Positions 3,615 to 56,066 of a DNA stretch of 64,000 nt are shown piece by piece. The notes under the pieces are model-generated. The model made no database searches and was not told where the DNA came from. It saw nothing but the letters and a program-made list of their open reading frames with translations. The stretch spans positions 4,588 to 68,587 of the forward strand of contig JAZUCF010000009.1 of NCBI GenBank assembly GCA_045638945.1, read 5' to 3'. The position numbers were made by a program, and so were the translations under genes. The stretch is from Clostridia bacterium (GTDB taxonomy: Bacteria; Bacillota; Clostridia; UMGS1883). How positions within the stretch are numbered: position 1 is the stretch's first letter; every line of letters starts with the position of its first letter.

Positions 3615-6236
3615 CTAGGAATTAATTACTACACGCCTGCTTTCAGTGCTCCAGCCTACGCTAAGCTCCAATGCTTCCGCCGCAAATCGGATGGGAACCA
3701 TGGTTCTTCCCTTAGTCGTAACATAGGGAGCCGCATCAAGCGTTACATCCTTTCCATTAAGAGTAGCACTGAGGCTTCCTGCCTTCATGGTGATATAGTT
3801 ATTTCCCTTGCGTGCAGAGATTTCGCCTGTCTCGGCGTCGTAAGAAACCTTTGCATCAAGAGCTTCAAAAAGCTCACGCATGGGAACCATTGCCCTGCTG
3901 TTTTCTATAACGGGCATTTCGGAAAAGTCCGCTTCCGCACCGTCGATTTCAATGGTTATCTTATTATCAAGATATTTCCAGTATTCTTTGTAGTTATAGA
4001 TAAATACGCCTGCCATTGTGCCTATAAATACCTCGTCTGTATTTGAGGAGAAGGCAGGTCTGTGAACCTCACTGCTCACAAGTCCGGGAACTGCGTGCCA
4101 GGTATCACCGCCGTCACGTGTTTCCCAAAGTTTGGGATCATCGTGAAACTTTCCGTTTAAAATTCCGCTATAGGTAGTAACCAAAATATGCTTGGGGTCT
4201 TTGGGATTTTGTGCGATGTACCTGAAAGCAGGATATCTTGACAGCTTTGCGTTATGCGATTCAAAGGTACCGCTCTTTGTATCAAGCTTTACAAGATTCT
4301 TTTTCTCGGTGTACCACACGTAGCGTTCATCCGCATCAAAAATCACACTTGTGAAATCTCCGCCCGTTGCCGGGGTGCAGATGTATCGCCAGTTTTCGCC
4401 GCCGTCCTCGGTAAGATAGAGCTCTGCTGTTTTTCCCGTTCCCTTGCAGGCAAGGATTTTCCCGGGAGTAACATTGGAAACGGCAAGGTAATAATATTCG
4501 TTCTCTTTCCAGGTTTTTCCGTTATCGTAGCTCGTCCAATAGGTTGTGTATATGGTGTTTTTATCCTCTACATCATATTGAAGCACACGGGTATTTCCAT
4601 TTCCGAGCGGGGGAATATTTTCTTTGAGGATTTTTCGGTCATCTCCGGGAGCATCAAAGGTTTTTCCACCGTCAAAGGACTGACGGACTCCGTAGTATGC
4701 TCCCACACCATTGTTTGCTCCTATAAAGCCGACAATATGATTATCGTCATTGGGGTCGAAAACGGCACATACAAATCTGAATTCTTCCTTATCCTTTTTG
4801 TAAGTACGATAGGTAGGATAGCTGTTTTCTGTATAAACTCCCGACCGATGGATAAATGCACCAACGTCGGTTGTGCAGAGGAAGGTTTTACCGGTAGACG
4901 AGGTTATAAAATTAGTTACGGAAGCACCCGAAAAGCCTGATGAAAGCCAGCGGTAGCTGTCATCCTTTGCCAGCCACTCACCGGGGCCACCCTCAAAATG
5001 TATTACTCTGCCCTCAGGCTCCGACCAGTCCACAATAAACTGCTTAAAGAGCCAGCCTGCATATCCTTCCCCTTTTTCATAACGAACAGTGTCCTCGGCA
5101 GCATGATGCTCCGGCTTAAGAACCAACGAAAAGGTCTTGCCGTAGTCATAGCTGACACGCAAGGGATAGGTAGAGTTGTTTGCACAGTAGTACAGAGGAT
5201 AAATCCCATCGGGATTTTTTGGACCGAATTTCAGTCCGTAGAAGTTCGCGTAGGAAGCCGTCGCTCCCTCGTTCTGTCCGTGGTAGGTAATAAATTCCAA
5301 TTTCTCAAAGTCGGGATTTGTACGATAAAGTGCACAGGAAACACTCTTTTTTGAATCAAGCTTGTCTGTAATATTCATTGTAATATATATCTCGGATTCA
5401 TTTTCGGGATGAAAGGCGACTGAACGGACGATATAGACCTTTTCCTCTGTTTCCGGCAGCTTAAATTCCCAGGTTTTTCCGCCGTCGTGGCTGATCCACA
5501 CTCCGCGAGGAAGTGTGCTTGTAGTCTGCGTAGCATATATATGCTGACCGTCCTTCGTTACTTCAATATCGTACCAGCGGGGAACGCCCGTAAGAGTCTC
5601 CCCCTCTGCGGGCCAGAGCTTTGTAACCTCCTCCGTTTCCCGATTCATGGAATAAATTCCGTGTGAAAGTGCCATATAGAGATTACCTTTACCGTCTATG
5701 GCAAGAGTATTGTCACGGTGACCTTTGGTCACCTTTGTTTCGTTATCTTCAATCACTTTTTCCCAGGTTCTGCCGAAGTTGCGGCTTCGCTGAACGCCTA
5801 CACCGCGCATATGTGCATACACGGTTGCCTCGTCAAAAGCGTCGCACATGAGGCCTGCGGCATCAAAGCCGCCTGCGTTATTAACACAGTTGTACCATCT
5901 TTCACCATCGTTTTTTGAAACGTAAATACCGCTGGTATTGGTGACGAAGTACATTATATCAGGATTCACCGGTGACTGTGCGGCACTTCTTACCTGCTGG
6001 CAGGCTTCACCGCCTAATGAGCCACGGGCTACTTCATTATCGCTCATTAAATGGAAGTTTCTCATCCACGGACAGTATACCGTGGCAAACGGACTTTCGG
6101 GATATGGCTCTGTATATGCCGCCGACGGAATTCTCGCCGGGGAATAGGTCACCGTCATAGGTGCTTTTTCGGCAAATGCCGATGTCCCTGCAAGCAGGGT
6201 TAATGCAAGTATAAGGCTTGTTATTTTCTTTTTCAT
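3615..6236 (-). CDS. secreted Asp-box/BNR-repeat double beta-propeller protein with C-terminal copper-amine-oxidase-N-like (stalk) domain
   Basis: Signal peptide MKKKITSLILALTLLAGTSAFA. About 8 SxDxGxTW-type boxes (SKNDGERW, SHDGGKTW, SFDGGKTF, SYDNGKTW, TEDGGENW, TRDGGDTW...). The C-terminal 110 aa carry MVPMRELFEALDAKVSYD...MVPIRFAAEALELSVGW. Confidence 0.85.
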   Translation of the reverse strand: MKKKITSLILALTLLAGTSAFAEKAPMTVTYSPARIPSAAYTEPYPESPFATVYCPWMRNFHLMSDNEVARGSLGGEACQQVRSAAQSPVNPDIMYFVTNTSGIYVSKNDGERWYNCVNNAGGFDAAGLMCDAFDEATVYAHMRGVGVQRSRNFGRTWEKVIEDNETKVTKGHRDNTLAIDGKGNLYMALSHGIYSMNRETEEVTKLWPAEGETLTGVPRWYDIEVTKDGQHIYATQTTSTLPRGVWISHDGGKTWEFKLPETEEKVYIVRSVAFHPENESEIYITMNITDKLDSKKSVSCALYRTNPDFEKLEFITYHGQNEGATASYANFYGLKFGPKNPDGIYPLYYCANNSTYPLRVSYDYGKTFSLVLKPEHHAAEDTVRYEKGEGYAGWLFKQFIVDWSEPEGRVIHFEGGPGEWLAKDDSYRWLSSGFSGASVTNFITSSTGKTFLCTTDVGAFIHRSGVYTENSYPTYRTYKKDKEEFRFVCAVFDPNDDNHIVGFIGANNGVGAYYGVRQSFDGGKTFDAPGDDRKILKENIPPLGNGNTRVLQYDVEDKNTIYTTYWTSYDNGKTWKENEYYYLAVSNVTPGKILACKGTGKTAELYLTEDGGENWRYICTPATGGDFTSVIFDADERYVWYTEKKNLVKLDTKSGTFESHNAKLSRYPAFRYIAQNPKDPKHILVTTYSGILNGKFHDDPKLWETRDGGDTWHAVPGLVSSEVHRPAFSSNTDEVFIGTMAGVFIYNYKEYWKYLDNKITIEIDGAEADFSEMPVIENSRAMVPMRELFEALDAKVSYDAETGEISARKGNNYITMKAGSLSATLNGKDVTLDAAPYVTTKGRTMVPIRFAAEALELSVGWSTESRRVVINS

Positions 6237-6285
6237 TTTACCTCTTCTCCTTTCTGTGGGGGGTAAAATTGCTGTCGAATGTTAC

Positions 6286-6304
6286 GGGCGGATAATATCC
6301 GCCC
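6286..6304. repeat. GC-rich REP-like hairpin
   Basis: GGGCGGATA-A-TATCCGCCC, flanked by gttac/ctacg partial extensions. It stands out in AT-rich intergenic DNA. Confidence 0.5.
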
Positions 6305-6345
6305 CTACGGGATGTCGTTTTTATCTGTTTTGTAGTAGGAAACAA

Positions 6346-6375
6346 GCACAGGCTCGGCACACGCCGAGCCTGTGC
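6346..6375 (-). terminator. stem-loop terminator after the 476-aa gene
   Basis: GCACAGGCTCGGC-acac-GCCGAGCCTGTGC, a 13-bp perfect stem. The minus-sense trailing sequence is TTGTTTCC. Confidence 0.55.
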
Positions 6376-6441
6376 CTGCGTTTTGGATTTTGTGTTTAGT
6401 ATTACTTTTTTATACTACGGTTTCCACAGACGTAGGAATTA

Positions 6442-7872
6442 TTATTCCACAGTTACTAATGAACCATTGTCATAACCAACAATTTCTCCGCAGCCGTCGT
6501 ATGTGCCTATAGTTTCATAATAGGTGATATTTGTTCCTTGTGCAACGCTGCAGCCTTTAACTGTAACATAAGCAACACCAGCACCTAAAATTCCGCCGAC
6601 ACGTACATTGTAGGGACAGTTAAGTTCTCCATAATTCACACAGTTCTCAATTACTGCTCCTGCCTTGCTTCCGCCTGATTTCACACCGACTATTCCGCCA
6701 ACACCTAAGGTCTTTGCTCGATTTGTTTTCGTGGTGCTGACTGCTGTAGTAGCTCCGTCTGAAAGGTCAATAGTTACATGCGAAGTACAATTTGAAATTG
6801 TTGCACCTGTTCCGATAACATGACCTACAACAGAGCCTGCAAAGTACGCATACTTTCCAGCCGCCGCTGTAATCTTTCCGTCAACGGTTACGTTTGCAAC
6901 AGTGTGTCTTGTATTAGCACAAAGCACGCTCTTGGGTTGTGCAGGGGTTGTAGTTGTGTCATTTGAAACGACATATGCGCCAACCATATTGAGGTCTTTA
7001 ATTTCGCCGTCTGTTCCTGTTCCCATGTATCCGAAAAGAGCAGCTCCTGCACCGTCAGCAGGGGTACAATAGAGTCCGTAAATGGTATGTCCGTCACCGT
7101 CAAAGCTTCCGGTGTATCTGCTTGTTGTTCCATCAGTGTTACCAATCATATAATCCACAGTATCACTAACCCAAGGCTTAGCAGTTGCTACCTTAGCAGG
7201 GTCTTCGTACCAATCCTTGTCAAAGCTTCCGTCTGCTTCAAAGAAAGCATTGAGATAAATATCGTCGGTAAGAACAACATTTGCTGTTATATAATTAGTA
7301 TCGTCCTTTTCTGCATTCTTGCTGAACCATGCAAGCTCATCTGCAGTTGCTATGCTATAGGTGTTTGTAGCTTCATCGTATGCAGGCTTATCAGCCTCTG
7401 TGGGAGTTTCACCGCTCCATACGTCGGGGGTGTCTGCCTGAGGTATTACATTCAGTGCATAAGGCTGTGCAATGGGCTCAAGAGTAGTCTTGCTTTCCCA
7501 AAGATAGAATTTTACATTGTAGCTGTTGTTAGCAGTTGTCAATGCTGTGGGAAGAGTGATTGCTTTTGTGTTAGTACCTGCTGTAAGTGCCGCATCTGTG
7601 ATTGATGCTGTGAGAAATGACGTTCCGTCGAACACTGCTGTCACAACGATAGCATCAGCATAAGCTGCATCGCTTGTTACAGCGAGAGTAACAGTTCCAC
7701 CGAGACCTGTAGTGTCGTTGATTACGGCATTGTTCTGTGAAACTGCGATTGTCACAGGGAGGCCTTCATTAGCCAAAGCTCTGCTAATGGGTGAAATCGC
7801 ATCAGGTGCTGCAAATGCCGTTACGGAAAGAATTACAGCCACCAGGCTGAGGGTTAAAAGTTTCTTTAACAT
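6442..7872 (-). CDS. secreted protein with N-terminal Ala/Thr-rich Ig-like region and GLUG-like C-terminal module
   Basis: Signal peptide MLKKLLTLSLVAVILSVTAFA. The C-terminal 326 aa are paralogous to the C-terminus of the giant protein. They contain repeated ENC.N.G....GGI(V/L)G turns typical of GLUG-motif domains. Confidence 0.85.
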   Translation of the reverse strand: MLKKLLTLSLVAVILSVTAFAAPDAISPISRALANEGLPVTIAVSQNNAVINDTTGLGGTVTLAVTSDAAYADAIVVTAVFDGTSFLTASITDAALTAGTNTKAITLPTALTTANNSYNVKFYLWESKTTLEPIAQPYALNVIPQADTPDVWSGETPTEADKPAYDEATNTYSIATADELAWFSKNAEKDDTNYITANVVLTDDIYLNAFFEADGSFDKDWYEDPAKVATAKPWVSDTVDYMIGNTDGTTSRYTGSFDGDGHTIYGLYCTPADGAGAALFGYMGTGTDGEIKDLNMVGAYVVSNDTTTTPAQPKSVLCANTRHTVANVTVDGKITAAAGKYAYFAGSVVGHVIGTGATISNCTSHVTIDLSDGATTAVSTTKTNRAKTLGVGGIVGVKSGGSKAGAVIENCVNYGELNCPYNVRVGGILGAGVAYVTVKGCSVAQGTNITYYETIGTYDGCGEIVGYDNGSLVTVE

Positions 7873-8038
7873 TTCCTTTTAATTCCTTTCTTTTTTGGAT
7901 TTGAATATCGGGACGCCCTCCCGACGGGGGTGTATATTGTAATTTAATTTAATTAATTTTCCTTTTGTTGGGGACAGGTCAATTTTTGTGCACCTATGGA
8001 TTACAAAAATGTCCCCGTCCCCGTAAATGCGGTCTCAC

Positions 8039-9457
8039 TTAGTGAGTCTTTGAAATGTCCAGACCGTCCTCGCCCTGAAGATATCTTCTTACTCTCTTCT
8101 GGCGTGCCACGTCGTATTCTCCTCTGTCTACGGCTTTTCTGAGTGCCGTGGTTGCACGGGAGCTAAGGTCTTTTATTGCTTCATCAAGAGTTAAATCTCC
8201 CATCCATACCTTTGAGAAAAGACCATCCCATTTTTCGCCTTCAAGTGCATAGCTTTCGCCTGATGCATAGCGTTTTTCCTCGTCAACCAATTCCCCGAAC
8301 TTAACGAAACGGGGATCCATTTTACTTTCGTCAACTACTTCGAGAACATCACGCTTTGAAGAAAGGTTGATACCTCTTTCAAAAAGCTCTGCACGAACCT
8401 CCTTGGAATAGAAGAACTTTATTACCTCCATTGTTTCCTCGGGATTCTTTTCCGCTACCTTTCCTATGCTGCGTAATCCGCCGCGGGAATTCCAGTGATT
8501 AATAATCTCTCTGCCTTCGGGTGCAGGATATACGCAGATATCCCAGTCACATTCAGCCTTGAACTGTTCATTATAAACTGCCACGTCCCAGCTGATTGCA
8601 GGAATCATACCGATTGTACCTGCTGCAAAGTATGCACGTGCTGTGTCGTTATCAAGAGTTTCCGCACCGGGGAAAAGACTGCCGTCCTTCTTCATATCTA
8701 AAATCCACTGATACATTTCCTTGTAGCCGGAATAGTCAACCGTAAGCTTATCAAGGTCTGTGTATGCAGATGCGGTTTCCTTATAGTTATTGTCATAGTA
8801 CGAAGCAAGAGGTGAAGCAATAGTGTAGCTAATTCCGAATTTTAAGGGGAATGCAAAGCCGTATACTCCGCCGCCGAGGGCTGTGATTTTCTTTGCATAT
8901 TCCTTTACATCTTCAAGGGTTTCAGGGGCTTTTGCTTCGCCGTTTTTATCAACGATGCCTGCTTTTTTGAACAAGTCCTTGTTATATGCAAGTGCCGCTG
9001 TTTTAACGGTGGGCTGTACGCCGTAGGTCTTGCCATTAACGAGGGTGCTTCCCTCTATTCCGGGCTGACCGAATTCCTCGATAAACTCTTTACCTCCGGG
9101 AAGGTCATCAAGAGCGAGCACGTCACCCTGCTCAATAAACTTTTTAAGCTGATTTCCCGATACGTTGAACAGGTGCGGAAGCTGACCGCTCTGCTGTGCT
9201 ACGTCAATCTGAGTGTTGTCGGTGGTTGTAACATAATCGATGAAAATGTTCTTTTCATCACCTGTGGTTGCGTTCCAGTTGTCCACAAGCTCTTCATATG
9301 TTTGCTGTGCACCTGCTTCGCTCGACCATACTGTGATAGTTACATCATCGCTGTCTGCCGCAGGTTTTTGTGCTTTCTTATCCACTCCGCCGCCGCAGCC
9401 AAAAAGGCAGCCCGCACATAAAATGAGTGAAAGAATGATTGCTAATGTTTTCTTCAT
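8039..9457 (-). CDS. ABC transporter solute-binding lipoprotein (family 1, carbohydrate type)
   Basis: Lipobox LFGC (Cys21). 472 aa with overall SBP_bac_1-like composition. Lies 19 nt downstream of the preceding gene. Confidence 0.85.
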   Translation of the reverse strand: MKKTLAIILSLILCAGCLFGCGGGVDKKAQKPAADSDDVTITVWSSEAGAQQTYEELVDNWNATTGDEKNIFIDYVTTTDNTQIDVAQQSGQLPHLFNVSGNQLKKFIEQGDVLALDDLPGGKEFIEEFGQPGIEGSTLVNGKTYGVQPTVKTAALAYNKDLFKKAGIVDKNGEAKAPETLEDVKEYAKKITALGGGVYGFAFPLKFGISYTIASPLASYYDNNYKETASAYTDLDKLTVDYSGYKEMYQWILDMKKDGSLFPGAETLDNDTARAYFAAGTIGMIPAISWDVAVYNEQFKAECDWDICVYPAPEGREIINHWNSRGGLRSIGKVAEKNPEETMEVIKFFYSKEVRAELFERGINLSSKRDVLEVVDESKMDPRFVKFGELVDEEKRYASGESYALEGEKWDGLFSKVWMGDLTLDEAIKDLSSRATTALRKAVDRGEYDVARQKRVRRYLQGEDGLDISKTH

Positions 9458-9476
9458 TGTTTGTTTCCTCCTTGAA

Positions 9477-12400
9477 TTAATAAACTGTTCCTCCTGCGGG
9501 AACTACGGTTTTCACACCGTTAATCTTTATATAAACGTCGGCTGTGCCTCCGTTATATATTGAGTCATTGTTTATGACAAGTGCACGCAATGAATTTATG
9601 TATTCCACAAATTCAATATTGGTGGGTTGCCATACATTGCCTTTATCTATTTCCGCCTTCAGGGTAGTGGTAAATGGCTCAAAAATTGTATTTTTCCAGT
9701 TTCCTTCACTGTCAACGTAGTTGTACGCGTGTCCCCATACGGAAAGTACCTTCAGCGTACCATCATCTTCAAGGTTAAAGAAGGTATCTGCAAGCATGGT
9801 TTCTTCATCATAAAGATTTCCGTGATGGCAGGTGAAACCCCAATTCATGAAGTTTTCGGGGATATCAATGGAGCCGCCTGTAGAGCAACGGGCGTACTTA
9901 CCGCCAAGTCCCTTTATATATTCGGTAATTTCGCTAAAATACGTTTTAGGCTTACCACCGGGATATGCCATACCGGGAACAGAGCGGTTATATTTATATT
10001 CCAGAGTGTTTTTAGCACCGCTCACTCTTTCCTTGGCAGTTGTCAGGGTTTCCTCGGTCGAGTCAGCCGGAAGCAGATTGCCTTCGCCGTGGCTATTACA
10101 ATGGGATGCAATTTCGTGATTTCCCGAAATCAGTGCCTCGTCAAGAACCGCCTGTCGGGCTGCACTGAGGCTTGAGCCAACTCTGTCGGGAATTATATTC
10201 ACCGTTGTTCTTAGTCCCTTTTCGTTAAGCTTTGTCAAAAGGGTTATTGTTTCCTCGTCAGGCGCATCGTCATAGCTTAAGGTAACCGCTTTTCTGGAAT
10301 AATTCGGGTAAAATTCCTTATCCACAGTACCTATTGACGAGTTAAACAGGGGAACAAGGGTTTCAAGGCTTTCCACACCGAAGATTTTTATAATATCGGT
10401 GTCATTCTTCTGAGCAAAAGCAGGGATTCTTACCTGCACGCTCTGCCCCTTCGGCACGGAAATATCCTTTTTAATCGAGCTGTCCTTAAAAATTCCTCCG
10501 CTTGTGAAAAGTCCGCCGATAAGGGTGACGCTTTCATCCTTATCCGTAACATTTTCGAGAGTTACGGTGGTAGAGCCTACCAATGTAGTATCGGGAATTG
10601 TTTCTATTATGAGTTGCGGACGGGAAGACTCTGTCCCCACATATGCACCGTAAAGTCTGCAATAGTTTGACTCATTGGGAAGTCCCGGTACCGCCAGGGC
10701 AAAGTCCGCACTTACAGTATCTTCGGAAAGGGTTTTTATGTAATTGGTAACATCAATTTCAATTTTTGAGCCTTGTCCGGTAGATGTAGTAATCTGTGCC
10801 GTTCCGGCTATGTTACACGCCGAAATCTCGGCAAAGGTTTTTCCAAGAGAGCTGATACTTTCCCCAAAAGAAATATCGGTAAAGCCTGTATATGCATTCA
10901 TAGTCACATTTGAGGATAGTCCGTTTGTTCTTAAGGTTGTAACGAGCTTTGCACTCTTTATAGCTTCATTCTCTGAAAACGTCGGCAAGCGGAATCTCAG
11001 TACTGCTCCGTAGTTATTTGTTCCATTATTTCCAATCCATATCTGGCGTTTGGTGGAACCGTCAGCATCTTCGTTTAATTTAGCTACTGACAATGATCCC
11101 GTATCGCTCCATGAATAAGTCGCTTCATACTTTCGGTAAAGGTCTGCTTTGTTTTCATCTGTGTATGCGTTTCCGTCAGATGTTGTATAACGGGTATATG
11201 TATTCGACTGCACTTCACCGGAGTATTCTTCGGCGGATTTTATGATTACAGACGCCTTTGCAGTGTCAAAGGAAATACTGTCTGTGATTACATTTCCCGA
11301 AAGGTCTGTAAGACCACTTATAGAAAGCGTATAGGAGCTGCTATACTCCAAAGCCTTGTCAAAATAGACAAACACGCTCTTTCTTTCGGGGTGAAGAACC
11401 ACGGAAGATACCTCCGCTTCCGATCCATTCAGCATAAAGCAGTTCTCTGTTACAGAGGGCTGATAAAGCTCCTTGTTAAAATTCAGTGTGACAGAGTTTA
11501 TAGCCTTTACATTCTTTGCTCCCTTTTCGGGGAAGCTTGAAGAAATCTTCGGCAAAGTCTGTGCATCACTTGAAGAAGCTGTGGTGAATTTAAACGCCGC
11601 GCCTTCCTCCACGGCTATGCCGCCTGAGGATTTCACATTCCCGTTAAATGAAACTGTGTACTGGGTATTATGCAGAAGGTTGGAAGCGAGTCCTAACTTT
11701 ATTGTGGTTTTGTCCGCGGAATAGTTTACGCGGCTGATGGGAATATTCCCGGGGGTAATAGTGATATTTGCCGCGGTAAGTGTTTGGGTGTTCATTTCGC
11801 GGCTGAACTGAATCTCGGGAATATAACCGTTTACCGGAGCACCCGTTGCATCTGCGGTAAGAATTGTGGTAGGGGTTGTATTCTCCCCTGTTGTGATTAC
11901 AAGCACAGGGCGATTAGCCACAGTGCCGGCATATACTGAATCGGTTATCACATAGTTTGTAGCTGTGAGATTTGGCACTGCGAGGAAGAAATCTGCATTG
12001 CCGCTGCGGCTCTTTACATGCTCTGTGACGTCAATCTCAATTTTGTCCCCTGCTTTAGCCGTAGAGGGAACTGCAGTGCTTCCGACGCTATTCGCCGTAA
12101 TATCTGCAAAAGAGCCGAAGCCTGTTGCACTGAATTTACTTCCGAATTTTGTACTCGGCGAATATGCATATGCGTGAACCGTAAGTTCAGAGGTCATATT
12201 ATTCACGTCGCTGACCGTTGCCACAAGCTTTGCACTTTTTACTACCTCGTTTTCTGCAAGAGTTGGAAGCGGAAATCTTAAAAATGGTGCGTAGTCACTT
12301 TTACCATTGTTTCCTTTTCCAATCCAGTAAGTTAAAGGATGGGTTGTGCTTACAGAAGGAGAAGCAGACGTACTACCCCAGGCGTACTGAGACTCGTAAT

Positions 12401-12566
12401 AACGGTAGAGTCCACTTGTGGAAGTATCGGTGTATTCCGCTCCGGTCTTTGTAGCATGGTATGTATATGTTCCCCCGATGGCGGTTTCCTCCGCAAAGGC
12501 AGGAACAATGCCGATTATGGAAAAGCACATACATAGAGATAAAATTATTGAAATTAGCTTTTTCAT
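9477..12566 (-). CDS. secreted multidomain protein: DNRLRE-like module x2, SbsA-type Ig-like x2, C-terminal polysaccharide deacetylase (CE4/NodB)
   Basis: Signal peptide ends AFA-EE. Internal duplication of aa ~30-227 and ~445-657 (YRYYESQYAWGS/YRKYEATYSWSD; LRFPLPTLAENEVVKSAKLV/LRFRLPTFSENEAIKSAKLV; RPVLVITT/RPQLIIET). NodB motifs SYDDAP and HEIASHCNSH are present. Confidence 0.88.
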   Translation of the reverse strand: MKKLISIILSLCMCFSIIGIVPAFAEETAIGGTYTYHATKTGAEYTDTSTSGLYRYYESQYAWGSTSASPSVSTTHPLTYWIGKGNNGKSDYAPFLRFPLPTLAENEVVKSAKLVATVSDVNNMTSELTVHAYAYSPSTKFGSKFSATGFGSFADITANSVGSTAVPSTAKAGDKIEIDVTEHVKSRSGNADFFLAVPNLTATNYVITDSVYAGTVANRPVLVITTGENTTPTTILTADATGAPVNGYIPEIQFSREMNTQTLTAANITITPGNIPISRVNYSADKTTIKLGLASNLLHNTQYTVSFNGNVKSSGGIAVEEGAAFKFTTASSSDAQTLPKISSSFPEKGAKNVKAINSVTLNFNKELYQPSVTENCFMLNGSEAEVSSVVLHPERKSVFVYFDKALEYSSSYTLSISGLTDLSGNVITDSISFDTAKASVIIKSAEEYSGEVQSNTYTRYTTSDGNAYTDENKADLYRKYEATYSWSDTGSLSVAKLNEDADGSTKRQIWIGNNGTNNYGAVLRFRLPTFSENEAIKSAKLVTTLRTNGLSSNVTMNAYTGFTDISFGESISSLGKTFAEISACNIAGTAQITTSTGQGSKIEIDVTNYIKTLSEDTVSADFALAVPGLPNESNYCRLYGAYVGTESSRPQLIIETIPDTTLVGSTTVTLENVTDKDESVTLIGGLFTSGGIFKDSSIKKDISVPKGQSVQVRIPAFAQKNDTDIIKIFGVESLETLVPLFNSSIGTVDKEFYPNYSRKAVTLSYDDAPDEETITLLTKLNEKGLRTTVNIIPDRVGSSLSAARQAVLDEALISGNHEIASHCNSHGEGNLLPADSTEETLTTAKERVSGAKNTLEYKYNRSVPGMAYPGGKPKTYFSEITEYIKGLGGKYARCSTGGSIDIPENFMNWGFTCHHGNLYDEETMLADTFFNLEDDGTLKVLSVWGHAYNYVDSEGNWKNTIFEPFTTTLKAEIDKGNVWQPTNIEFVEYINSLRALVINNDSIYNGGTADVYIKINGVKTVVPAGGTVY

Positions 12567-12580
12567 TTTCTTTTTTCTCC

Positions 12581-15196: not shown

Positions 15197-15216
15197 TATC
15201 ATCTTCCTTTTTGTTT

Positions 15217-15247
15217 GGTGACGGGGGAATTTTAAATCCCCGTCACC
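15217..15247. other. intergenic stem-loop between the giant gene and the propeller gene
   Basis: GGTGACGGGG(G)A-attttaaa-TCCCCGTCACC. No U-tract follows it on the coding (minus) sense, so it is not a canonical terminator. Confidence 0.4.
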
Positions 15248-15287
15248 TTTAGCACGAAATTAAATAGCAAATTCTCTGCGGTATTGA

Positions 15288-18200
15288 TTATTCTGCAGGG
15301 TACGGAACCAATGTTCCTCCTGCTGTATTTGTTCCTTCCTCGGTGAGACGAGTACCTCTGACGAATCCTACTAAGAGATTACATCCCTTACATGTTCCCC
15401 AGTCCTTAGCATGGGTAATAACAGACTCGCTACCGTTGGTACAATTCTTCAGCGTCAAAGTGGCTATTACTGTACCTACAACTCCGCCGATTTTCTGATT
15501 ATATGGTGCGAATATTGAACCATTGTTAGTACAATTCTCAACCAAGGTTCCATCCTTGGTAACCGCACCGACAATTCCGCCTATACCTCTGCTTCCTGTT
15601 TCGCTATTTCCGTCACCGCACAAATCGGTTCCTCCGCCGGTAAGGTCGATATCCACATCTGAAGTACAATCGACTATTGTTGCACTACGTGCAGTGCATA
15701 CTATAGAGCCTGCAAAACTTACATATTTTCCGTTCGCTACAGCAATCTTTCCGTCTGCTGTCAGGTTACTAAACGTACCGCTGGCCGTATATCCACAAAC
15801 AACACTTATAAATCCGTTGGTTGTATCAGCCTTCTCATCGTTTGCCACCACATAAGCACCCTTGAAGTTTGTATTTTTGACAGTGCCGCCGCTGCCAACT
15901 ATACCGAAGAAGCTTACATTTTCTCCTGAAGCACCTGAAAGGTAGAGACCATAGATTGTCTTTCCGTTACCATTGAAGGTACCTGTATATGCATTGCCTG
16001 AGCCCGATACGCCTATCTGATAGCCGTGCCAGTTGTTTGCACCTGCTACATTACCTGCTGTTTCATACCAACCCTCATCGAATGTGCCGTCATTATCAGC
16101 ATCAAACCAGTTGAGATAAATATCATCCGTAAGGATTGCATTAGCTGTTTTAGCTGCATTTTTACCAAACCATGCAAGCTGATTTCCGTTAGAAATCTGA
16201 TAGGGATTTGCCGCTGAGCCGTCACCGGTCGGCTTATCAGCATCTGTGGGTTCATTTCCGCTCCAGATTGAATACCATTGAGCGGTAAATACAACTGTAT
16301 CCCCTGCTCCTACGCTATGATCATTGGGGATATAGTCATATCCGGGGGGATATGGTTCACCATTGCTGTCTTTCCATCCATGTAGACCATGATTTTCCTT
16401 AACAGCTGTGGGAAGATCGTGTGATTCAGGGTTTCCGTCTATATCTTCAAGAGCCCATTTGTATGTGTGAATTTCTTCGACTCCGTCCATAAATACGAAG
16501 GTTGCTTTGGGAACTGTCTTCCACTCGGCTGTGAAGGTCTCCCCTGCAGGGCTTTCGGGAGTATATCCATTGCTTCCGGGGATATAGTCAGCTCCGGGGG
16601 CATATGGTGTACCATTGTTGTCTTTCCACCCTGTGAGGACTTTTTCACCGCTGTTATAACCTTTTCCATCAAGGTCTGCCTGTGTGGGAAGCTTATGCGT
16701 TTCAAATTCAGTACTTGCAGGTTTATAAATTGACCACCATTCATCACAAATCGAAGTACCGTCGGGATTTACAAATGAGAATTTGATTGAGGGATTATAA
16801 CCGCCCCAAGTTGCCCTAATCGTCACGCTTTCATTTACAGTATAGGATTCTCCCGGTTGTTTAATTTCTCCGTTAATATTCCAGCCTGCAAAGTCGTAAT
16901 TTGTACGTGTTGGTCCGGCAGGAAGTGAGCTGATTACGTAGCCTTTTTCTACACGATGCAATGCTGTATCAATTCCTGTGGCATCGGTTACGCCCTCACC
17001 TGCTGAATATGAGTACGTATACATTTCGGAAAGGTCAACGAGCCATATGTTCTTTATGAGTACATTATTTGTGTCACACATTACAATTCCCGTAGCCGTA
17101 AGCGGTGCATGACTGCTGAGACGGATATCGTTTTCCGTTGCAACAGTTACTTCAATTCCGGCACTGCTTCCCGTGAATTTATAAAAACCGTTTTGTGTGA
17201 TTTTGGATATAGAATTCCACATGTACTCTGTTGTGGAATCATCCAAATCAGCAGAGGAAGCATCAGGTTTTTGTGAAACACGCAGATATCCGTCCTCAAT
17301 ATGGGTTGTATATCCGCCGTGCACTCTGCCATCGCCCATGAAGCTTGTCGGTTTCATTCTGTCGCTGACTAAATCGACAAATGCTCTGTTTTTATAATCG
17401 TAAATCCTTTTAGCTGCGGAAAGCTTTCCGGAGGTATCTGCTCCAAAACGGAAAATATCTCCGCGGTTTAAGGCTGAAAGCGCTGAAAGATTATCCGCTG
17501 AAAGGTCATCACGTGCTGTTACGGATTTTCTTTCCAAACCGTCATAGTAATAAATTTTTGTAACCTCATAGCCATCTTCATCAAAGGCAATCACCGAGCG
17601 GTCAAAGAGCATCAGGCGGTTCTTTTCTCCTACAGTTTGTGACACCGTACCTTTTGCATATGCGATTGAAACATTAGGCGTGAGATTACCTACTGTATAA
17701 ATCTCGGTGGTTGTTCTGTCATGCCCGTCAGGCAGAACTCCGGTAAGAGTCTGATAATCTTCTATAGTAGTCGCTGAAGCAGCAGTATTCAAAACTGACA
17801 ACGTTGAAGCCGCGGTAAGGAAGTAGCGGTTGTAGAAGTTACCCTTTTCATACCTGTTATCTTTTGATTCCCCTTCACTTCTCAGGGGGAGGACGGTTCT
17901 CTTGTTAAGAGTGGTTTCACGCTTTTCCTTATTATCGGGATCGGTGTCCTGGGTGTCTTTATAATATGTGTCTACCTTGTTGATTTTTCCGTCCGCGTTA
18001 AGAGAGAAGATAATTCCCTGGGGTTCAAATGTCCCTTCTTTTTTGAAGCAATTCTCAATATCTTCTATTTTCTTCTTTATTTTTCCGTCAATTTCCACTT
18101 TATCGGCAAAATCATATACCACGTAGTCCTCAACATCTTTCACCATTATTGCCGCCTGGAGTTTTTTCCTTATGGCACTGCCGCTCTCGGCAACTGTTAT

Positions 18201-20648
18201 AATATAGCCGGGAATGTCGGTGATTTTTTCAGATTCAAAGCCTACAATTCTTCCGAATGCATCTATATAGAAAAGTCCGCTTGTTCCTACGTCAATACGC
18301 GATGTCCACACAGTTTTACGATTTGCGGTTTCGTATTCTGCGCCATTTATGGTGAGAACCATGTCCTCCGAGCCTGCGTTTTCAATAGCTTCAATTTTTC
18401 CGCTGATGTTTCTCTTTGCAACAATTGCTTTTACCAAAGTGTTATCCAGGCTTCTTGCAACCGAGATAACATCTTCCTTTGAAATTGAAGAAAGCGGAAT
18501 TTCAACACCATTCATGTCTTTAAGCGTATAAAAATCGCAATCCTCAAGCTCAAGGGTATTTCCGTAGGAGTCGTACAAATCGTATACCCTTTCGTTCTCT
18601 GCATCAACTGTGCTTACCACCATAGTTCTGTAAGCATCAATTACAGTGAGGCTGTCGCCGATAAGCTTGATGCTTCCGCCGTCTGCCTTGCTGAGAAGGA
18701 TTTTGCCGAGGTCGCTTGATGCGATGCTCTTTCCGTTGTAGATAACATATTTTCCGCTTCCTACAGAGAAAGTATCACTTACATTCTTTCCGTTTGCCTT
18801 TTTATATGTAAAGTTAACGGTGCTTCCGCTTACGCTATCGCCTGTAACATCGGCAAGGTCAATTTCGGTAATATCATATTCCTTTGTTCCCATGTAAAGG
18901 AGTCTGTCGTCGTTATCGTACCAGCCCTTTACGCGGTAGCCGAGGAAATTGTTATATTCCTTATAAAGAAGCTTAAGCTCTTTTGAGTCGATGTATATTG
19001 TGTTTTCCTTACCGCTTGCTGCGGGATTTTTAAGGTCGGAAAATTCGTTTTTCGTAACTGTTCCCTCAGTTACCTTTGCATTCCAGTACTCGGTAAGGAT
19101 ATTTTTGTTTTCGTTAAATATATATTCTGCAGTTCCGTTTGAGCTATAGGTTGTTACCTCAAGAACTGCGGCATCAAGAGCGTTACGAAGAATCTTGAAC
19201 ATTTCGTTGAAGGAAAGAGCCTTAGTGGCAGTTGCCGCACCCATATAAAGCTCTCCAATGCGTGCCGCATCAAAGTAGCCGGGGGTGTAGCCTCCTCTTT
19301 CCTCTGCATATACATCATAGTTTAAGATTCTGCCCATTACTGTGATTGCCTCACCCAAGGTGATGAAATCATAGGGACGGAAAGCTATACCTGCATCGCC
19401 TGCGATATAGCCCTGTGCACGGGCTGTATTCACTTCATCAAAGAAGGGAGCATCAGAAGGCACATCGGAGAAGTGCTGACTGCTTCCCTTAACTATCTGT
19501 GCATTTGCAAGGCGGAGTGCATAGCGGATAAATTCCCATCGCATTACGCCTTCATTAAAATCAAGAGGAAATTCGTCCTCCTCTGTAAATACGCCGAGCG
19601 AGCGAAGGATTCCCATTTCGCTGTAGCGGTTTTGGTCATCCGCGTCCGCCTGTACAGCTTCCTTTACGGGGAAATTATATGTTTCCTCCACGGTAATGCT
19701 GATTGTGGGAGGTGTAGGTGTGTTTACACCCTTTACGCCATAGGCGACCTTATCCATGTGCGATCTGTTCTCGCGATGTGTTCCGAGAAGCTTCAGGGAA
19801 AGCTCCGTATTTTCTGCAATCGCTCCGTTTACATGGCTTAATATGTCCAGCTTCACGTCGGCATAGGCTGAACCCGAAGTGCCTACAGCCTTTGACTTCT
19901 CCTCGCGCAGCTCGGGCTGATTATTCCAGTTAAGCTCACCCTTTTTCCAGGGGGCGGTTCTTACCGCAGTAATTTTAGCACCTGTATCTTTGAGGGATAC
20001 ATTCATTTCCAAAAATGCACTTTCAATCACTTTACCGCGGAAGGAACCAATATTTGCCATATAATAAACATAGCTTGATTTTTCCGGGAAGTTGTTCATT
20101 TGGTCGCGAAGTGCATCCGCTCCGGTAGCAGTCGTTACAAGAGCATCCTCATCGGGCTTTATTGCACTTACCGCTGCGGCATGCTGCTCGTCAATACGGA
20201 TTGTGTATACGTTAGGTGTAATCTCTACGCTGCGTAAATCTTCCGCAACTGCTACAGGCATACCAAAGCTCTGACTAAGCAATTCCACACCTGCATACAG
20301 CACACCGTTTCTTAAGATGGGCTGATGTGAAAGCTCAGCCTCTCTCCCGTTAACACTAAAGATAAGATTTCCCACCATAAAAGTGGCGGTGGAATCTCCT
20401 CTTTTCACGGTGAAGTTATCACCCGTGCGGGTAATCTCCATTTTGAGATATCCGCAAAGTTCCTCCATGGGAACAAAAATCGTATCATATGCGGCAAAGG
20501 GCTGATTTTTAAAATCCACCGCTGTGCCGGAAATTGTTACATCTGCCGGGTACTCACGCGCTGCAAGAGCTAAAGTCCCCGGTATTAATATCGTAACCAT
20601 TGCCATCACTAAAACGAGCGACAGCATTCTCATGAAAAGCTTCTTCAT
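15288..20648 (-). CDS. giant (~1786 aa) secreted surface protein: stalk domain, DNRLRE-like, SLH-like repeats, ~790-aa unassigned core, Flg_new-like repeats x3, GLUG-like C-terminal module
   Basis: The ORF is open to 20708, but AGGAG 9 nt upstream of ATG 20648 and the signal peptide MKKLFMRMLSLVLVMAMVTILIPGTLALA favour 20648. Domain motifs are listed in the findings. Confidence 0.9.
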   Translation of the reverse strand: MKKLFMRMLSLVLVMAMVTILIPGTLALAAREYPADVTISGTAVDFKNQPFAAYDTIFVPMEELCGYLKMEITRTGDNFTVKRGDSTATFMVGNLIFSVNGREAELSHQPILRNGVLYAGVELLSQSFGMPVAVAEDLRSVEITPNVYTIRIDEQHAAAVSAIKPDEDALVTTATGADALRDQMNNFPEKSSYVYYMANIGSFRGKVIESAFLEMNVSLKDTGAKITAVRTAPWKKGELNWNNQPELREEKSKAVGTSGSAYADVKLDILSHVNGAIAENTELSLKLLGTHRENRSHMDKVAYGVKGVNTPTPPTISITVEETYNFPVKEAVQADADDQNRYSEMGILRSLGVFTEEDEFPLDFNEGVMRWEFIRYALRLANAQIVKGSSQHFSDVPSDAPFFDEVNTARAQGYIAGDAGIAFRPYDFITLGEAITVMGRILNYDVYAEERGGYTPGYFDAARIGELYMGAATATKALSFNEMFKILRNALDAAVLEVTTYSSNGTAEYIFNENKNILTEYWNAKVTEGTVTKNEFSDLKNPAASGKENTIYIDSKELKLLYKEYNNFLGYRVKGWYDNDDRLLYMGTKEYDITEIDLADVTGDSVSGSTVNFTYKKANGKNVSDTFSVGSGKYVIYNGKSIASSDLGKILLSKADGGSIKLIGDSLTVIDAYRTMVVSTVDAENERVYDLYDSYGNTLELEDCDFYTLKDMNGVEIPLSSISKEDVISVARSLDNTLVKAIVAKRNISGKIEAIENAGSEDMVLTINGAEYETANRKTVWTSRIDVGTSGLFYIDAFGRIVGFESEKITDIPGYIITVAESGSAIRKKLQAAIMVKDVEDYVVYDFADKVEIDGKIKKKIEDIENCFKKEGTFEPQGIIFSLNADGKINKVDTYYKDTQDTDPDNKEKRETTLNKRTVLPLRSEGESKDNRYEKGNFYNRYFLTAASTLSVLNTAASATTIEDYQTLTGVLPDGHDRTTTEIYTVGNLTPNVSIAYAKGTVSQTVGEKNRLMLFDRSVIAFDEDGYEVTKIYYYDGLERKSVTARDDLSADNLSALSALNRGDIFRFGADTSGKLSAAKRIYDYKNRAFVDLVSDRMKPTSFMGDGRVHGGYTTHIEDGYLRVSQKPDASSADLDDSTTEYMWNSISKITQNGFYKFTGSSAGIEVTVATENDIRLSSHAPLTATGIVMCDTNNVLIKNIWLVDLSEMYTYSYSAGEGVTDATGIDTALHRVEKGYVISSLPAGPTRTNYDFAGWNINGEIKQPGESYTVNESVTIRATWGGYNPSIKFSFVNPDGTSICDEWWSIYKPASTEFETHKLPTQADLDGKGYNSGEKVLTGWKDNNGTPYAPGADYIPGSNGYTPESPAGETFTAEWKTVPKATFVFMDGVEEIHTYKWALEDIDGNPESHDLPTAVKENHGLHGWKDSNGEPYPPGYDYIPNDHSVGAGDTVVFTAQWYSIWSGNEPTDADKPTGDGSAANPYQISNGNQLAWFGKNAAKTANAILTDDIYLNWFDADNDGTFDEGWYETAGNVAGANNWHGYQIGVSGSGNAYTGTFNGNGKTIYGLYLSGASGENVSFFGIVGSGGTVKNTNFKGAYVVANDEKADTTNGFISVVCGYTASGTFSNLTADGKIAVANGKYVSFAGSIVCTARSATIVDCTSDVDIDLTGGGTDLCGDGNSETGSRGIGGIVGAVTKDGTLVENCTNNGSIFAPYNQKIGGVVGTVIATLTLKNCTNGSESVITHAKDWGTCKGCNLLVGFVRGTRLTEEGTNTAGGTLVPYPAE

Positions 20649-20693
20649 ATGCAATTTCTCCTTTCCTTTTCTTTCCACAACAAGCGAAAGCTC

Positions 20694-20722
20694 TTGACTT
20701 CGCTCCATAATTATTGTATAGT
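20694..20722 (+). promoter_or_regulatory. candidate sigma-A promoter of the AraC-family gene
   Basis: TTGACT (20694-20699), 17 nt spacer, TATAGT (20717-20722). Confidence 0.5.
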
Positions 20723-20741
20723 TATATCGTAAAAAAGTAAA
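20713..20741 (-). promoter_or_regulatory. candidate sigma-A promoter of the giant surface-protein gene
   Basis: Minus sense reads TTTACT (20741-20736), 17 nt spacer, TACAAT (20718-20713). Its -10 overlaps the -10 of the divergent promoter. Confidence 0.4.
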
Positions 20742-20776
20742 CCTTAAATCGTTTCTAAAAAGTCAGAAATCGTATC
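20724..20776. promoter_or_regulatory. three phased AWATCGT repeats (candidate AraC-family operator)
   Basis: ATATCGT at 20724, AAATCGT at 20746 and AAATCGT at 20767. Spacings are 22 and 21 bp. Confidence 0.3.
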
Positions 20777-20791
20777 ACTCGGAGGTAATGT

Positions 20792-21742
20792 ATGGAAATA
20801 AAAATCCGTTCCTTTAATTCTACTTATTTTCCCTCGGATAAAGGGGCAAATTCTATCATTAATATTGCCAGTGCAGGATATACCTTCGGAAATCCAAGCT
20901 TTAAAAGGAAAATTAACCCCGTGGACTCTGCTACCTCTTCTTCAGAATATTATCAACTGGAATACGTGACGGAAGGCATATGTCACATTGAAATGGGAGA
21001 CCGCACCTATTCCGTCTCCGAGGGGGAATTTTTCTTCATAAACAAAGGCATACCGCGTACTCTGTATGCAGATAAGAAAAAACCCGTAAAAAAATTTTTT
21101 ATCAACATAAAAGGCTCTCTCGCCGATGGGCTCATAAAAGGGCATGAGTTAAATCAACCAATATTAATACTGAAAATTGACGTTCTGAGTCATTTTCTCA
21201 GACTTATGGGAATTTTAGGGTCGGCAGACTCCTACGATACCAAAACAGAAGGTGAAATCAGCGCCGAGCTCTCAAGGCTTCTACACAAGGTTTACACCGC
21301 CAAGCAAAGCCTCGAAGCTGTAAAAATAAGCTCCGACTGCAGTGCTGAGGATATTTTAAGATATATTGATACAAATATGGGAAGGAAGTTTTCCATTGAA
21401 GAAATGTGCGAGCATTTCTTTATCAGCCGTGCAAAGCTCTGGAGGATATTCAAGTCAAAGTATAACACCACGCCTCATGTATATTTGCAATTGAAGCGGA
21501 TTGAGAAAGCCAAATATTATCTGCTTCACACAAATCATCCCATTTCAACCCTTCATGAAACCATAGGGCTTAGCGACTCAAAGTATTTTTTTCAGCTTTT
21601 CAAAAAGGAAACGGGGATGACTCCTCTCAAGTTCCGCGAAAAATTCTTCGGAATGGATAACATAACTCCGCTGGTTATTAAAAATCCTCAGGAGGAATTT
21701 TCTCTTCGAAAAACCGGAAATGCTCTTGAAAAGAAACGGTAA
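20792..21742 (+). CDS. AraC/XylS-family transcriptional regulator (cupin-like N-terminal domain plus C-terminal double HTH)
   Basis: GGAGG lies 6 nt upstream. The C-terminus reads ILRYIDTNMGRKFSIEEMCEHFFISRAKLWRIFKSKYNTTPHVYLQLKRIEKAKYYLLHTNHPISTLHETIGLSDSKYFFQLFKKETGMTPLKFR. Confidence 0.92.
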   Translation: MEIKIRSFNSTYFPSDKGANSIINIASAGYTFGNPSFKRKINPVDSATSSSEYYQLEYVTEGICHIEMGDRTYSVSEGEFFFINKGIPRTLYADKKKPVKKFFINIKGSLADGLIKGHELNQPILILKIDVLSHFLRLMGILGSADSYDTKTEGEISAELSRLLHKVYTAKQSLEAVKISSDCSAEDILRYIDTNMGRKFSIEEMCEHFFISRAKLWRIFKSKYNTTPHVYLQLKRIEKAKYYLLHTNHPISTLHETIGLSDSKYFFQLFKKETGMTPLKFREKFFGMDNITPLVIKNPQEEFSLRKTGNALEKKR

Positions 21743-21837: not shown

Positions 21838-21890
21838 AAAAAAGCACGGAGTTGTAAAAAAGATACACTTTTTTACAACTCCGTGCTTTT
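21838..21890. terminator. bidirectional terminator
   Basis: AAAAAAGCACGGAGTTGTAAAAAAG-ataca-CTTTTTTACAACTCCGTGCTTTT. It overlaps the stop codon of the minus-strand gene. Confidence 0.85.
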
Positions 21891-31801: not shown

Positions 31802-31841
31802 AAAGGTGATATACCCCTTTCAGTATGTAAAAATAATATAA

Positions 31842-32150: not shown

Positions 32151-32208
32151 ACAACTCACCTCCACAACCTATAGTATAACGTAAAGTAATCTGTTTGTAA
32201 AGATTTTT

Positions 32209-53723: not shown

Positions 53724-53734
53724 TCCCTTTTAAA

Positions 53735-56046: not shown

Positions 56047-56066
56047 TTTATATCTTTCCTTTCGGG

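Follow-up and report, generated by a model that had tools for sequence, protein, structure and literature searches.

An AraC-Linked Island of Secreted Proteins with GH74-Like Propellers, Probably a Polysaccharide-Utilization-Type Surface Locus of Uncultured Clostridia

Introduction

The loci with which gut and other anaerobic Clostridia break down many glycans are far less understood than those of Bacteroidota. Here we analyzed a 64,000-nt stretch of DNA from a Clostridia bacterium (assembly GCA_045638945.1, contig JAZUCF010000009.1, positions 4,588 to 68,587; the whole stretch is called the window below), which contains an island of six genes for secreted proteins (P1 to P6) next to a divergent gene for an AraC-type regulator. 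The gene cluster is real and conserved in a handful of uncultured spore-forming Clostridia, and it is probably an AraC-controlled surface locus of the Gram-positive polysaccharide-utilization type, with permeases encoded elsewhere. It is most likely an uncharacterized variant of a known sugar-harvesting locus type rather than a new kind of machine.

The activity known for GH74 enzymes is inverting hydrolysis of beta-1,4-glucan backbones, typically xyloglucan. Described endo-xyloglucanases and oligoxyloglucan cellobiohydrolases of the family (e.g. Xgh74A of Clostridium thermocellum, PDB entries 2cn2 and 2cn3; the Acidothermus enzyme, 4lgn; the Paenibacillus odorifer enzyme, 6mgj) are secreted and consist of two seven-bladed Asp-box propellers of about 740 aa in total, with the active-site cleft between the two, a half-1 loop of the form Y-x-x-(T)-D/N-x-x-G-x-Y followed by an Asp-box and a half-2 pattern G-x-x-x-x-x-V-x-D/N ... 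D-x-G-x-F. P1 and P5 of the island share this architecture and both patterns and retain the second catalytic Asp. However, their identity to GH74 structures is only 13-15%, the sequence GGE(A/G)xQ replaces the GGGG signature, and the first catalytic Asp is Asn. Furthermore, P1 carries a Cu_amine_oxidN1 domain where GH74 enzymes have CBM2, CBM3 or a dockerin, and the genomic partners of the island are not xyloglucan side-chain enzymes.

At the level of the whole locus, the closest described systems are Gram-positive polysaccharide utilization loci (gpPULs), defined by a degrading enzyme, a transporter and a regulator (PMC5320581, Sheridan et al., 2016). Like the gpPULs of gut Firmicutes (PMC5320581), the island combines clustered secreted carbohydrate-active enzymes bearing modules of the carbohydrate-binding module (CBM) type with an ATP-binding cassette (ABC) binding protein, an AraC-type regulator and an accessory, species-variable content. 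Unlike them, it has neither permease or ATPase genes nor a cytoplasmic glycoside hydrolase (GH) in the window, and it is dominated by a 1,786-aa non-enzymatic protein and a GH74-like family without a characterized member. As in a cellulosome or amylosome, genes for secreted enzymes lie next to the gene for a very large multi-module protein associated with the wall; in the island, one putative enzyme (P1) also shares a small module with the giant protein, namely Cu_amine_oxidN1, the pairing module of PaSOD (PMC10432803). However, the pairing of P1 with the giant is putative, and the Pfam scan detected no cohesin or dockerin (PF00963, PF00404) in the six island proteins. Similarly, none of their C-termini has an LPXTG motif with a hydrophobic tail, and no sortase is encoded in the window, so the absence of cohesin, dockerin and LPXTG stated in a preliminary description of this DNA, made from the sequence alone, is confirmed. 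Literature searches turned up neither an account of such a locus type nor one of a GH74-like family of this kind.

Results

Organization of the Island

Six consecutive open reading frames on the minus strand each encode a secreted protein, as follows:

3615-6236, minus strand: P1, 873 aa; signal peptide, tandem beta-propeller (aa ~27-760), C-terminal Cu_amine_oxidN1 (Pfam, AF2, Foldseek and motif mapping).
6346-6375, minus strand: G+C-rich hairpin with a 13-bp stem, followed by TTGTTT, in the gap between P2 and P1 (terminator scan and sequence).
6442-7872, minus strand: P2, 476 aa; signal peptide, N-terminal beta-sandwich, GLUG-type Cys-containing module.
8039-9457, minus strand: P3, 472 aa; substrate-binding lipoprotein of a sugar ABC importer (SBP_bac_1 and SBP_bac_8, E about 1e-19 to 1e-20).
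9477-12566, minus strand: P4, 1029 aa; signal peptide, first DNRLRE/CBM96-like module, two Big_5 domains, second DNRLRE-like module, linker, CE4 domain (Pfam and NCBIfam).
12581-15202, minus strand: P5, 873 aa; signal peptide, tandem beta-propeller paralogous to P1, without Cu_amine_oxidN1 (Pfam BNR and Sortilin-Vps10 matches).
15288-20648, minus strand: P6, the giant protein, 1786 aa from the ATG at 20648; from N- to C-terminus signal peptide, Cu_amine_oxidN1, CBM96/DNRLRE module, SLH repeat, a centre of ~770 aa, three Flg_new-type repeats and a GLUG-type module (Pfam, start codon with ribosome-binding site, repeats).
20690-20778, no strand assigned: divergent control region with overlapping promoter-like sites in both directions (promoter scan).
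20792-21742, plus strand: AraC/XylS-family regulator, 316 aa; N-terminal cupin-type AraC ligand-binding domain, C-terminal double helix-turn-helix (Pfam AraC_binding, HTH_18 and HTH_AraC).

A signal peptide was found at the N-terminus of all island proteins (6/6), and P3 additionally has a lipobox-like LCAGC, so the six adjacent minus-strand genes for secreted proteins in the preliminary description were borne out. The open reading frame of the giant extends to 20708 (15288-20708), where an in-frame upstream ATG has no ribosome-binding site; GGAAAGGAGA stands directly before the ATG at 20648, which is the start of the gene. With this start, the spacer between the giant gene and the divergent araC gene is 143 bp, the distance also given previously. 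The intergenic gaps are 85 nt (giant to P5), 14 nt (P5 to P4), 19 nt (P4 to P3), 166 nt (P3 to P2) and 205 nt (P2 to P1). The hairpin in the last gap may be an internal terminator or attenuator, and P1 may therefore be transcribed partly on its own.

GH74-Like Propellers P1 and P5

P1 and P5 are 38% identical across 834 aa (E = 7e-151), in line with the two Asp-box double propellers seen previously; the start of P5 is possibly Met3, at 15196. A homologue search yielded only ~56 clusters of close relatives (30-73% identical), all derived from metagenomes or metagenome-assembled genomes and none of them named. Exact-sequence look-ups with P1, P0003, P0012 and P0065 matched no contig. In single-sequence phmmer searches against PDB, P1 obtained nothing and P5 only a 394-aa BNR protein, and no GH74 chain was matched at E <= 0.01 by either protein. 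The relationship to GH74 became visible from structure and profiles. Using the AF2 model of P1, built on the alignment of the close relatives (pLDDT 90.8, pTM 0.89), as a Foldseek query against PDB, the top 24 matches were all GH74 (~760-840 aligned columns, 13-15% identity, TM 0.56-0.64 normalized to target), followed by unrelated double propellers at much lower TM. The profile of the propeller family also ranked GH74 chains first in PDB (E = 1e-18), via short single-blade fragments that were partly out of register. A scan of genome contigs with generic Asp-box peptides returned only remote BNR proteins of unrelated phyla, including two GH74-like proteins, L004 and L013, that serve as bridges. 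The alignment of the propeller family with these bridging proteins by hhalign is collinear over 615 columns (99.96% probability), so homology to GH74-type enzymes over the whole double propeller is well supported.

The GH74 catalytic motifs were located through L004, whose two Asp residues are paired by hhalign with N100 and D457 of P1. The half-1 motif is ARADIGGAY in wild-type Xgh74A (2cn2) and ARAAIGGAY in the catalytic mutant 2cn3, while the Acidothermus enzyme (4lgn) has VRTDIGGMY in half 1 and GLEETAVNDLISPPSGAPLISALGDLGGF in half 2; the equivalents in P1 are GGEACQQVRSAAQSPVNPDIMYFVTNTSGIY and GFSGASVTNFITSSTGKTFLCTTDVGAF, respectively. The first catalytic Asp (Asp70 of Xgh74A, Ala in 2cn3) aligns with Asn in both island proteins (P1 N100, nt 5937-5939; P5 N108, nt 14879-14881). 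The second one (within GDLGGF in 4lgn; Asp480 of Xgh74A and Asp465 of OXG-RCBH) is kept (P1 D457, nt 4866-4868; P5 D493, nt 13724-13726). In GH74, Asp70 acts as the base and Asp480 as the acid; these roles were not used as evidence.

The second catalytic Asp is invariant in 56/56 close relatives and in 76/76 wider relatives. The wider set came from an exhaustive HMMER search across 1.84 billion representatives, in which the number of hits was 45 at E <= 1e-30, 460 at <= 1e-10 and 3,054 at <= 1e-3. At the first position, 38 of 55 close relatives have Asp and 17 have Asn, compared with 68 and 7 of 75 wider relatives, and no third residue occurs. Asn is present in P1, P5, all sampled P5-type orthologues and the nearest P1-type orthologues, which suggests at least two origins or spread by gene conversion. 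Because only Asp or Asn is found here and the surrounding loop is conserved, constraint rather than decay is argued for, and the position looks like a constrained Asp/Asn switch. In addition, the GGGG signature of GH74 has become GGE(A/G)xQ in the P1/P5 family. Since the first catalytic Asp is absent, we do not file P1 and P5 as GH74 members; by predicted fold and homology they are GH74-like, putative hydrolases, and their family appears to comprise the most distant full-length relatives that could be linked to GH74. The preliminary description had named the assignment of the propellers to a characterized GH family in a described locus as an outcome that would speak against it. The structure is indeed nearest to GH74, but identity is 13-15%, one catalytic position is changed and no described locus was found.

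Other assignments of the propellers were rejected. A sialidase (GH33) reading is based only on single-blade matches. For a Sortilin/Vps10 receptor, the Pfam matches correspond to Asp-box blades, and the fold has 2 x 7 blades, not 10. Scores for Ycf48 and F510_1955 were far under the cut-offs.

Binding Lipoprotein, Deacetylase and P2

The preliminary description had seen no transporter core in the island. This holds only for the permease and ATPase, which are absent from the window, because P3, unrecognized at that time, is an ABC sugar-binding protein. Its best matches among named NCBIfam families, both weak, are the binders NgcE (chitobiose) and GanS (galacto-oligosaccharide).

In P4, the first DNRLRE module (nt 11886-12479), the second Big_5 (nt 11262-11561) and the second DNRLRE module (nt 10596-11234) precede a CE4 polysaccharide deacetylase domain (aa 757-879, nt 9930-10298; Polysacc_deac_1, 35.4 bits vs. 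a cut-off of 23.1). Its motifs LSYDDAPD and NHEIASHCNSH align with LTFDDGPD and GHEIGNHSWSY of the acetyl-xylan esterase CtCE4 (2c71), the closest solved structure (weak, E = 0.0024), and both motif 1, (T/S)(F/Y)DD, and motif 2, H(S/T)xxH, with the metal-binding and catalytic residues, are present.

Behind its signal peptide, P2 has a beta-sandwich at aa ~40-142 (nt 7447-7755), followed at aa 151-476 (nt 6445-7422) by a GLUG-type module with a weak Pfam Glug motif, and only 13 clusters of homologues were found. In its AF2 model (pLDDT 82.4), the beta-sandwich resembles the porphyran-binding CBM 8wae (Foldseek, TM 0.61-0.65, 23-28% identity), and the top match of the whole model is weak, the pneumococcal IgA1 protease 7uvl (TM 0.33, query-normalized).

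Giant Protein and Shared Modules

Several modules of the giant are shared with its neighbors. Its C-terminal GLUG-type module (nt 15291-16268) and the last 330 aa of P2 share 44% identity (E = 6e-68), as expected from the two Cys-containing copies seen previously; the Pfam Glug motif scores 20.8 bits vs. a cut-off of 20.5. Three DNRLRE/CBM96 modules exist in the island, again as previously claimed: P4 has two (NCBIfam, 59.7 bits over two stretches), which share 41% identity, and the giant has one (nt 19767-20075). Pfam CBM96, the counterpart of DNRLRE, and NCBIfam DNRLRE models match these modules, but the copy of the giant scores close to the threshold (30 bits vs. a cut-off of 26). The founding member of CBM96 belongs to the alginate lyase Dp0100 of Defluviitalea phaphyphila and binds alginate (PMC9971899). 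According to published papers, CBM96/DNRLRE modules are also carried by enzymes for many unrelated substrates, so that alginate specificity is not transferable, and alginate as a substrate from CBM96 alone was rejected. Shuffling of modules is further supported by the relatives P0069-71, in which the P2-type N-terminal domain is fused to a DNRLRE module.

The Cu_amine_oxidN1 domains previously noticed at the C-terminus of P1 (aa 764-871, nt 3624-3947; Pfam, E = 1.6e-31) and the N-terminus of the giant (nt 20220-20534, aa 59-163 counted from the ATG at 20708; Pfam, E = 6.6e-13) are 23% identical to each other (E = 5e-9). This domain is common in wall hydrolases (PMC4137172) and mediates dimerization in PaSOD, a secreted superoxide dismutase of the Firmicute Paenibacillus (PMC10432803). 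In six loci, the giant and exactly one propeller carry this domain, a pattern suggestive of wall retention or pairing, but in L001 and L033, which have no giant gene nearby, it is also found on the propeller.

Proteins anchored by SLH domains usually contain three SLH repeats. Of the several repeats previously ascribed to the giant, a single marginal one remains (nt 19344-19472; 20.3-24.7 bits vs. a cut-off of 20.8); SLH was matched in 3/5 giant orthologues, with weak profile matches to the Sap SLH domain (E = 0.03-0.05). The three Flg_new-type repeats of the giant (nt 16269-17021) stood better, as one passes Pfam and the others are linked by pairwise similarity (repeat 2 vs. 3, E = 7e-10; repeat 3 vs. 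1, E = 0.001), but the copy previously placed at the C-terminus of P5 did not: its ~60-aa tail has no Flg_new match in Pfam and a BLAST E-value of about 0.1-0.2 over an 11-19-residue motif. The centre of the giant, between the SLH repeat and the Flg_new repeats (nt ~17022-19331, ~770 aa), is its most conserved part. A homologue search with this centre returned only two remote SLH proteins and missed even known orthologues, and a scan of metagenome contigs with the giant-protein alignment returned nothing.

Regulator and Control Region

A direct repeat with 21-bp spacing, AAATCGTTTC (20746-20755) and AAATCGTATC (20767-20776), lies just upstream of the -35 element of the giant-gene promoter. The repeat-bearing block is conserved with the related locus L031, and the remaining spacer is not. 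The consensus AAATCGTWTC occurs only three times in the 64 kb (20477-20486 in the 5' part of the gene for the giant, 20746-20755 and 20767-20776 in the araC spacer; 0.37 expected, three copies reached in 2/100 shuffles), and another copy is found in L031 at 3700-3709, near the start of the PGA_cap gene. The repeat at 20746-20776 is a plausible candidate for the AraC operator.

Recurrence in Relatives

Nine loci were examined, namely the window and eight relatives (L001, L002, L003, L031, L032, L033, L034 and L035). Six of the relatives (L002, L003, L031, L032, L034 and L035) repeat the set of AraC, giant, binding protein and two propellers, which answers the question of co-travel with AraC raised by the preliminary description. 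By BLAST, both propellers and the giant have orthologues in L002 and L003; for AraC, P3, the giant and the P1-type propeller, orthologues were identified in L003, L031 and L032; L034 and L035 contain the set in a more distant form. Orthologues in L002, L003, L031 and L032 are 59-63% (P3) and 36-50% (giant) identical to the island proteins, and those of P5 in L002 and L003 65-69%. An AraC-type regulator lies beside the set in L003, L031, L032 and L035, and the AraC orthologues adjoining it are 67% (L031), 42% (L032) and 32% (L003) identical. The gene orders are given below (CuAO, Cu_amine_oxidN1; SBP, binding protein):

L031: AraC / PGA_cap-giant-propeller(CuAO)-CE4-SBP-(P2-related)
L003: AraC / giant-SBP-487 aa-propeller(CuAO)-propeller
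L002: giant-SBP-292 aa-SGNH esterase-propeller(CuAO)-propeller-heparinase-II/III-like-two ABC permeases
L032: SBP, AraC / giant-propeller(CuAO)-propeller(CuAO)-sugar-isomerase-like-propeller
L034: two permeases-476 aa-propeller(CuAO)-giant-propeller
L035: two-component system, GLUG protein-propeller-SBP-SBP-propeller(CuAO)-giant, AraC/PocR regulator, GHL6 protein
L001 and L033: reduced form, GH26 / AraC-GH3-propeller(CuAO)

The stable core is the giant, the Cu_amine_oxidN1 propeller, the second propeller, the binding protein and usually AraC; the variable parts are a deacetylase or esterase, a lyase-like protein, a GLUG protein and permeases. Two BPD_transp_1 permeases adjoin the gene set in L002 and L034, and carbohydrate-active partner genes are present in L001, L002, L033 and L035. 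The usual xyloglucan side-chain genes (GH31, GH2/GH42/GH35 and GH29/GH95) were found in none of the nine loci. In L031, the closest relative, the P1 orthologue is 73% and a flanking PRK gene 87% identical, indicating the same chromosomal site with a different gene order, as module and gene shuffling would have it.

Two relatives contain further genes that are absent from their counterparts. L031 has a RelB/ParE toxin-antitoxin pair (1705-2255) and a PGA_cap (CapA-like) gene (3746-4909), neither of which is present in the window. In L033, a gene for a Card1-type endonuclease (5340-6545, minus strand; a CRISPR ancillary nuclease family) lies between GH26 and AraC and is absent in the otherwise syntenic L001.

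Flanking Genes and Other Features of the Window

Housekeeping genes flank the island on both sides:

Left flank: ATP synthase beta and epsilon, DUF6873 and YtxC (YtxC at 2875-3564).
Right flank: uridine-kinase-like, radical-SAM, MBL, RelA/SpoT and RecJ genes, followed by further housekeeping genes.

Between araC and the convergent uridine-kinase-like gene, a hairpin with a perfect 20-bp stem and T-runs on both sides (21843-21887) looks like a bidirectional terminator that bounds the island on the right. The window gave no match in Rfam and tRNA scans. A gene of the choloylglycine (bile-salt) hydrolase family (29898-30845, plus strand; CBAH, E = 1.7e-93) hints at an animal-gut habitat of the organism. 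A spore-forming host of the Clostridia type is indicated by YtxC and by sporulation-associated genes at 31379-32972 (minus strand), 47317-48843 (plus strand) and 48945-49715 (minus strand), among them those for a protein with a SipL/SPOCS domain and for a sigma factor of the sigma-70 family that may belong to sporulation. Small open reading frames in these regions are presumably YabP-, YabQ- and DivIC-like, from our own reading of the sequences. Additionally, two phenylacetate-CoA-ligase-like genes around a gene of the indolepyruvate/2-oxoacid:ferredoxin oxidoreductase type (52407-57377, minus strand) form an aromatic amino-acid fermentation cluster, which is unrelated to the island.

Discussion

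Compared with the gpPUL definition, the island has a transcriptional regulator, the AraC protein with its cupin domain, encoded divergently at 143 bp. On the enzyme side, the CE4 domain is intact in motifs 1 and 2, and the sole candidates for backbone cleavage are the propellers with one changed catalytic position. For transport, only the binding lipoprotein is encoded in the window, and permeases are adjacent in L002 and L034. The presence of P3, these permeases and the GH3, GH26, SGNH and heparinase-like genes in relatives run counter to the preliminary description where it set the island apart from Gram-positive polysaccharide utilization loci, whereas its wider view, in which surface proteins tied to a regulator act on an extracellular glycan, is supported. 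The partners in relatives (CE4 or SGNH esterase, GH3, GH26 and heparinase-II/III-like) point to an acetylated, side-chain-bearing, possibly uronic-acid-containing beta-glycan. Judging from these genes, the substrate is probably an acetylated, substituted or branched beta-glycan, possibly with uronic acid, rather than ordinary xyloglucan.

In a polysaccharide-utilization-type locus of this kind, the 1,786-aa giant would be held at the wall via its SLH repeat and/or Cu_amine_oxidN1 and would grip the polysaccharide through its CBM96/DNRLRE, Flg_new and GLUG modules. P1 and P5, related in fold and by homology to GH74 endo-beta-1,4-glucanases, would bind and probably cut the backbone of the substituted glycan, with P1 kept at the wall or paired with the giant by the Cu_amine_oxidN1 domain that they share. 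The CE4 domain of P4, with its conserved motifs, would remove acetyl groups that block cleavage, and the lipoprotein P3 would capture oligosaccharides for ABC permeases encoded elsewhere in the genome. The imported product may then bind the cupin domain of AraC and activate the divergent operon.

Several points weigh against this scheme. In both P1 (N100) and P5 (N108), one of the two GH74 catalytic Asp residues is Asn, so they may be poor hydrolases or non-hydrolases. The 64-kb window contains no permease or ATPase gene, which makes P3 an orphan binding protein there, and neither was found within 10 kb in L003 and L032; uptake by the locus is therefore only a proposal. The window also contains no gene for a cytoplasmic oligosaccharide-degrading enzyme. 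The simplest role for P2, in which Pfam and Foldseek detected no catalytic family, is binding or spacing, and the ~770-aa centre of the giant has no match in Pfam, NCBIfam or PDB by sequence and profile searches. Finally, the genes do not name the substrate, and the scheme is built on sequence and predicted structure.

The Asn substitution keeps alive the main alternative, a rather unlikely one, in which the island serves non-catalytic surface adhesion or glycan binding, with the propellers as lectin-like pseudo-enzymes, the giant and P2 as adhesins that fasten the cell to glycan surfaces of host, dietary or microbial origin, and degradation left to enzymes encoded elsewhere. Modules of the GLUG and Flg_new (InlB B-repeat) types typify adhesins and surface proteases, P2 begins with a CBM-like domain, the window lacks a permease, and Asn replaces the catalytic Asp in P1, P5 and 17/55 close relatives. 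However, that position holds D or N only and the second catalytic Asp is invariant in 132 sequences, the CE4 domain of P4 keeps its Asp-Asp and His-His motifs, and a sugar-binding protein is conserved in the set, adjoined by permeases in two relatives; esterases, GH3 and GH26 are also co-located in relatives. Remodeling of the cell's own envelope (peptidoglycan, secondary cell-wall polymer or own exopolysaccharide), with CE4 as a wall deacetylase and Cu_amine_oxidN1 and SLH as wall-targeting modules, is regarded as highly unlikely. Peptidoglycan deacetylases belong to CE4 and are among the weak PDB matches of P4, the giant has an SLH repeat, and the L031 version of the island includes a PGA_cap gene; but the best structural relative of the CE4 domain is an acetyl-xylan esterase, the conserved partners are an AraC with a sugar-type cupin and an ABC sugar-binding protein, the distribution is patchy and accessory (about 56 clusters), and the GH3, GH26, lyase-like and permease neighbors are catabolic.

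At the other extreme, the propellers might be bona fide, merely divergent GH74 xyloglucanases in an ordinary xyloglucan utilization locus. We give this very little credence: GH74 structures are the sole close fold matches and the best profile matches, and a GH3 gene adjoins the propeller in L001 and L033, but identity to GH74 structures is only 13-15%, single-sequence searches reach no GH74 chain at E <= 0.01, GGE(A/G)xQ stands for GGGG, Asn occupies the first catalytic position, and side-chain genes (GH31, GH2/GH42/GH35, GH29/GH95) are missing from the nine loci. A more far-reaching proposal, speculative and quite unlikely, is that the propellers form a new GH family or a deep GH74 subfamily, in which the proteins with Asn would use a glycan that is acidic, acetylated and furnished with side chains, perhaps with a carboxylate of the substrate or another residue replacing Asp, in a new kind of Gram-positive surface assembly tethered to a giant wall-anchored scaffold by a Cu_amine_oxidN1 "handshake" instead of cohesin and dockerin.

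The locus is a small, conserved gene set that was hitherto unannotated (about 56 propeller clusters and 13 P2 clusters, none named), and at one catalytic position its propellers switch naturally between Asp and Asn. Should they be active, GH74-type chemistry would be extended to a new substrate, and the locus would offer a handle on enzyme retention at the Firmicute wall without cellulosomal modules. If they are inactive, they would be an example of enzyme-derived surface glycan-binding proteins in Gram-positives.

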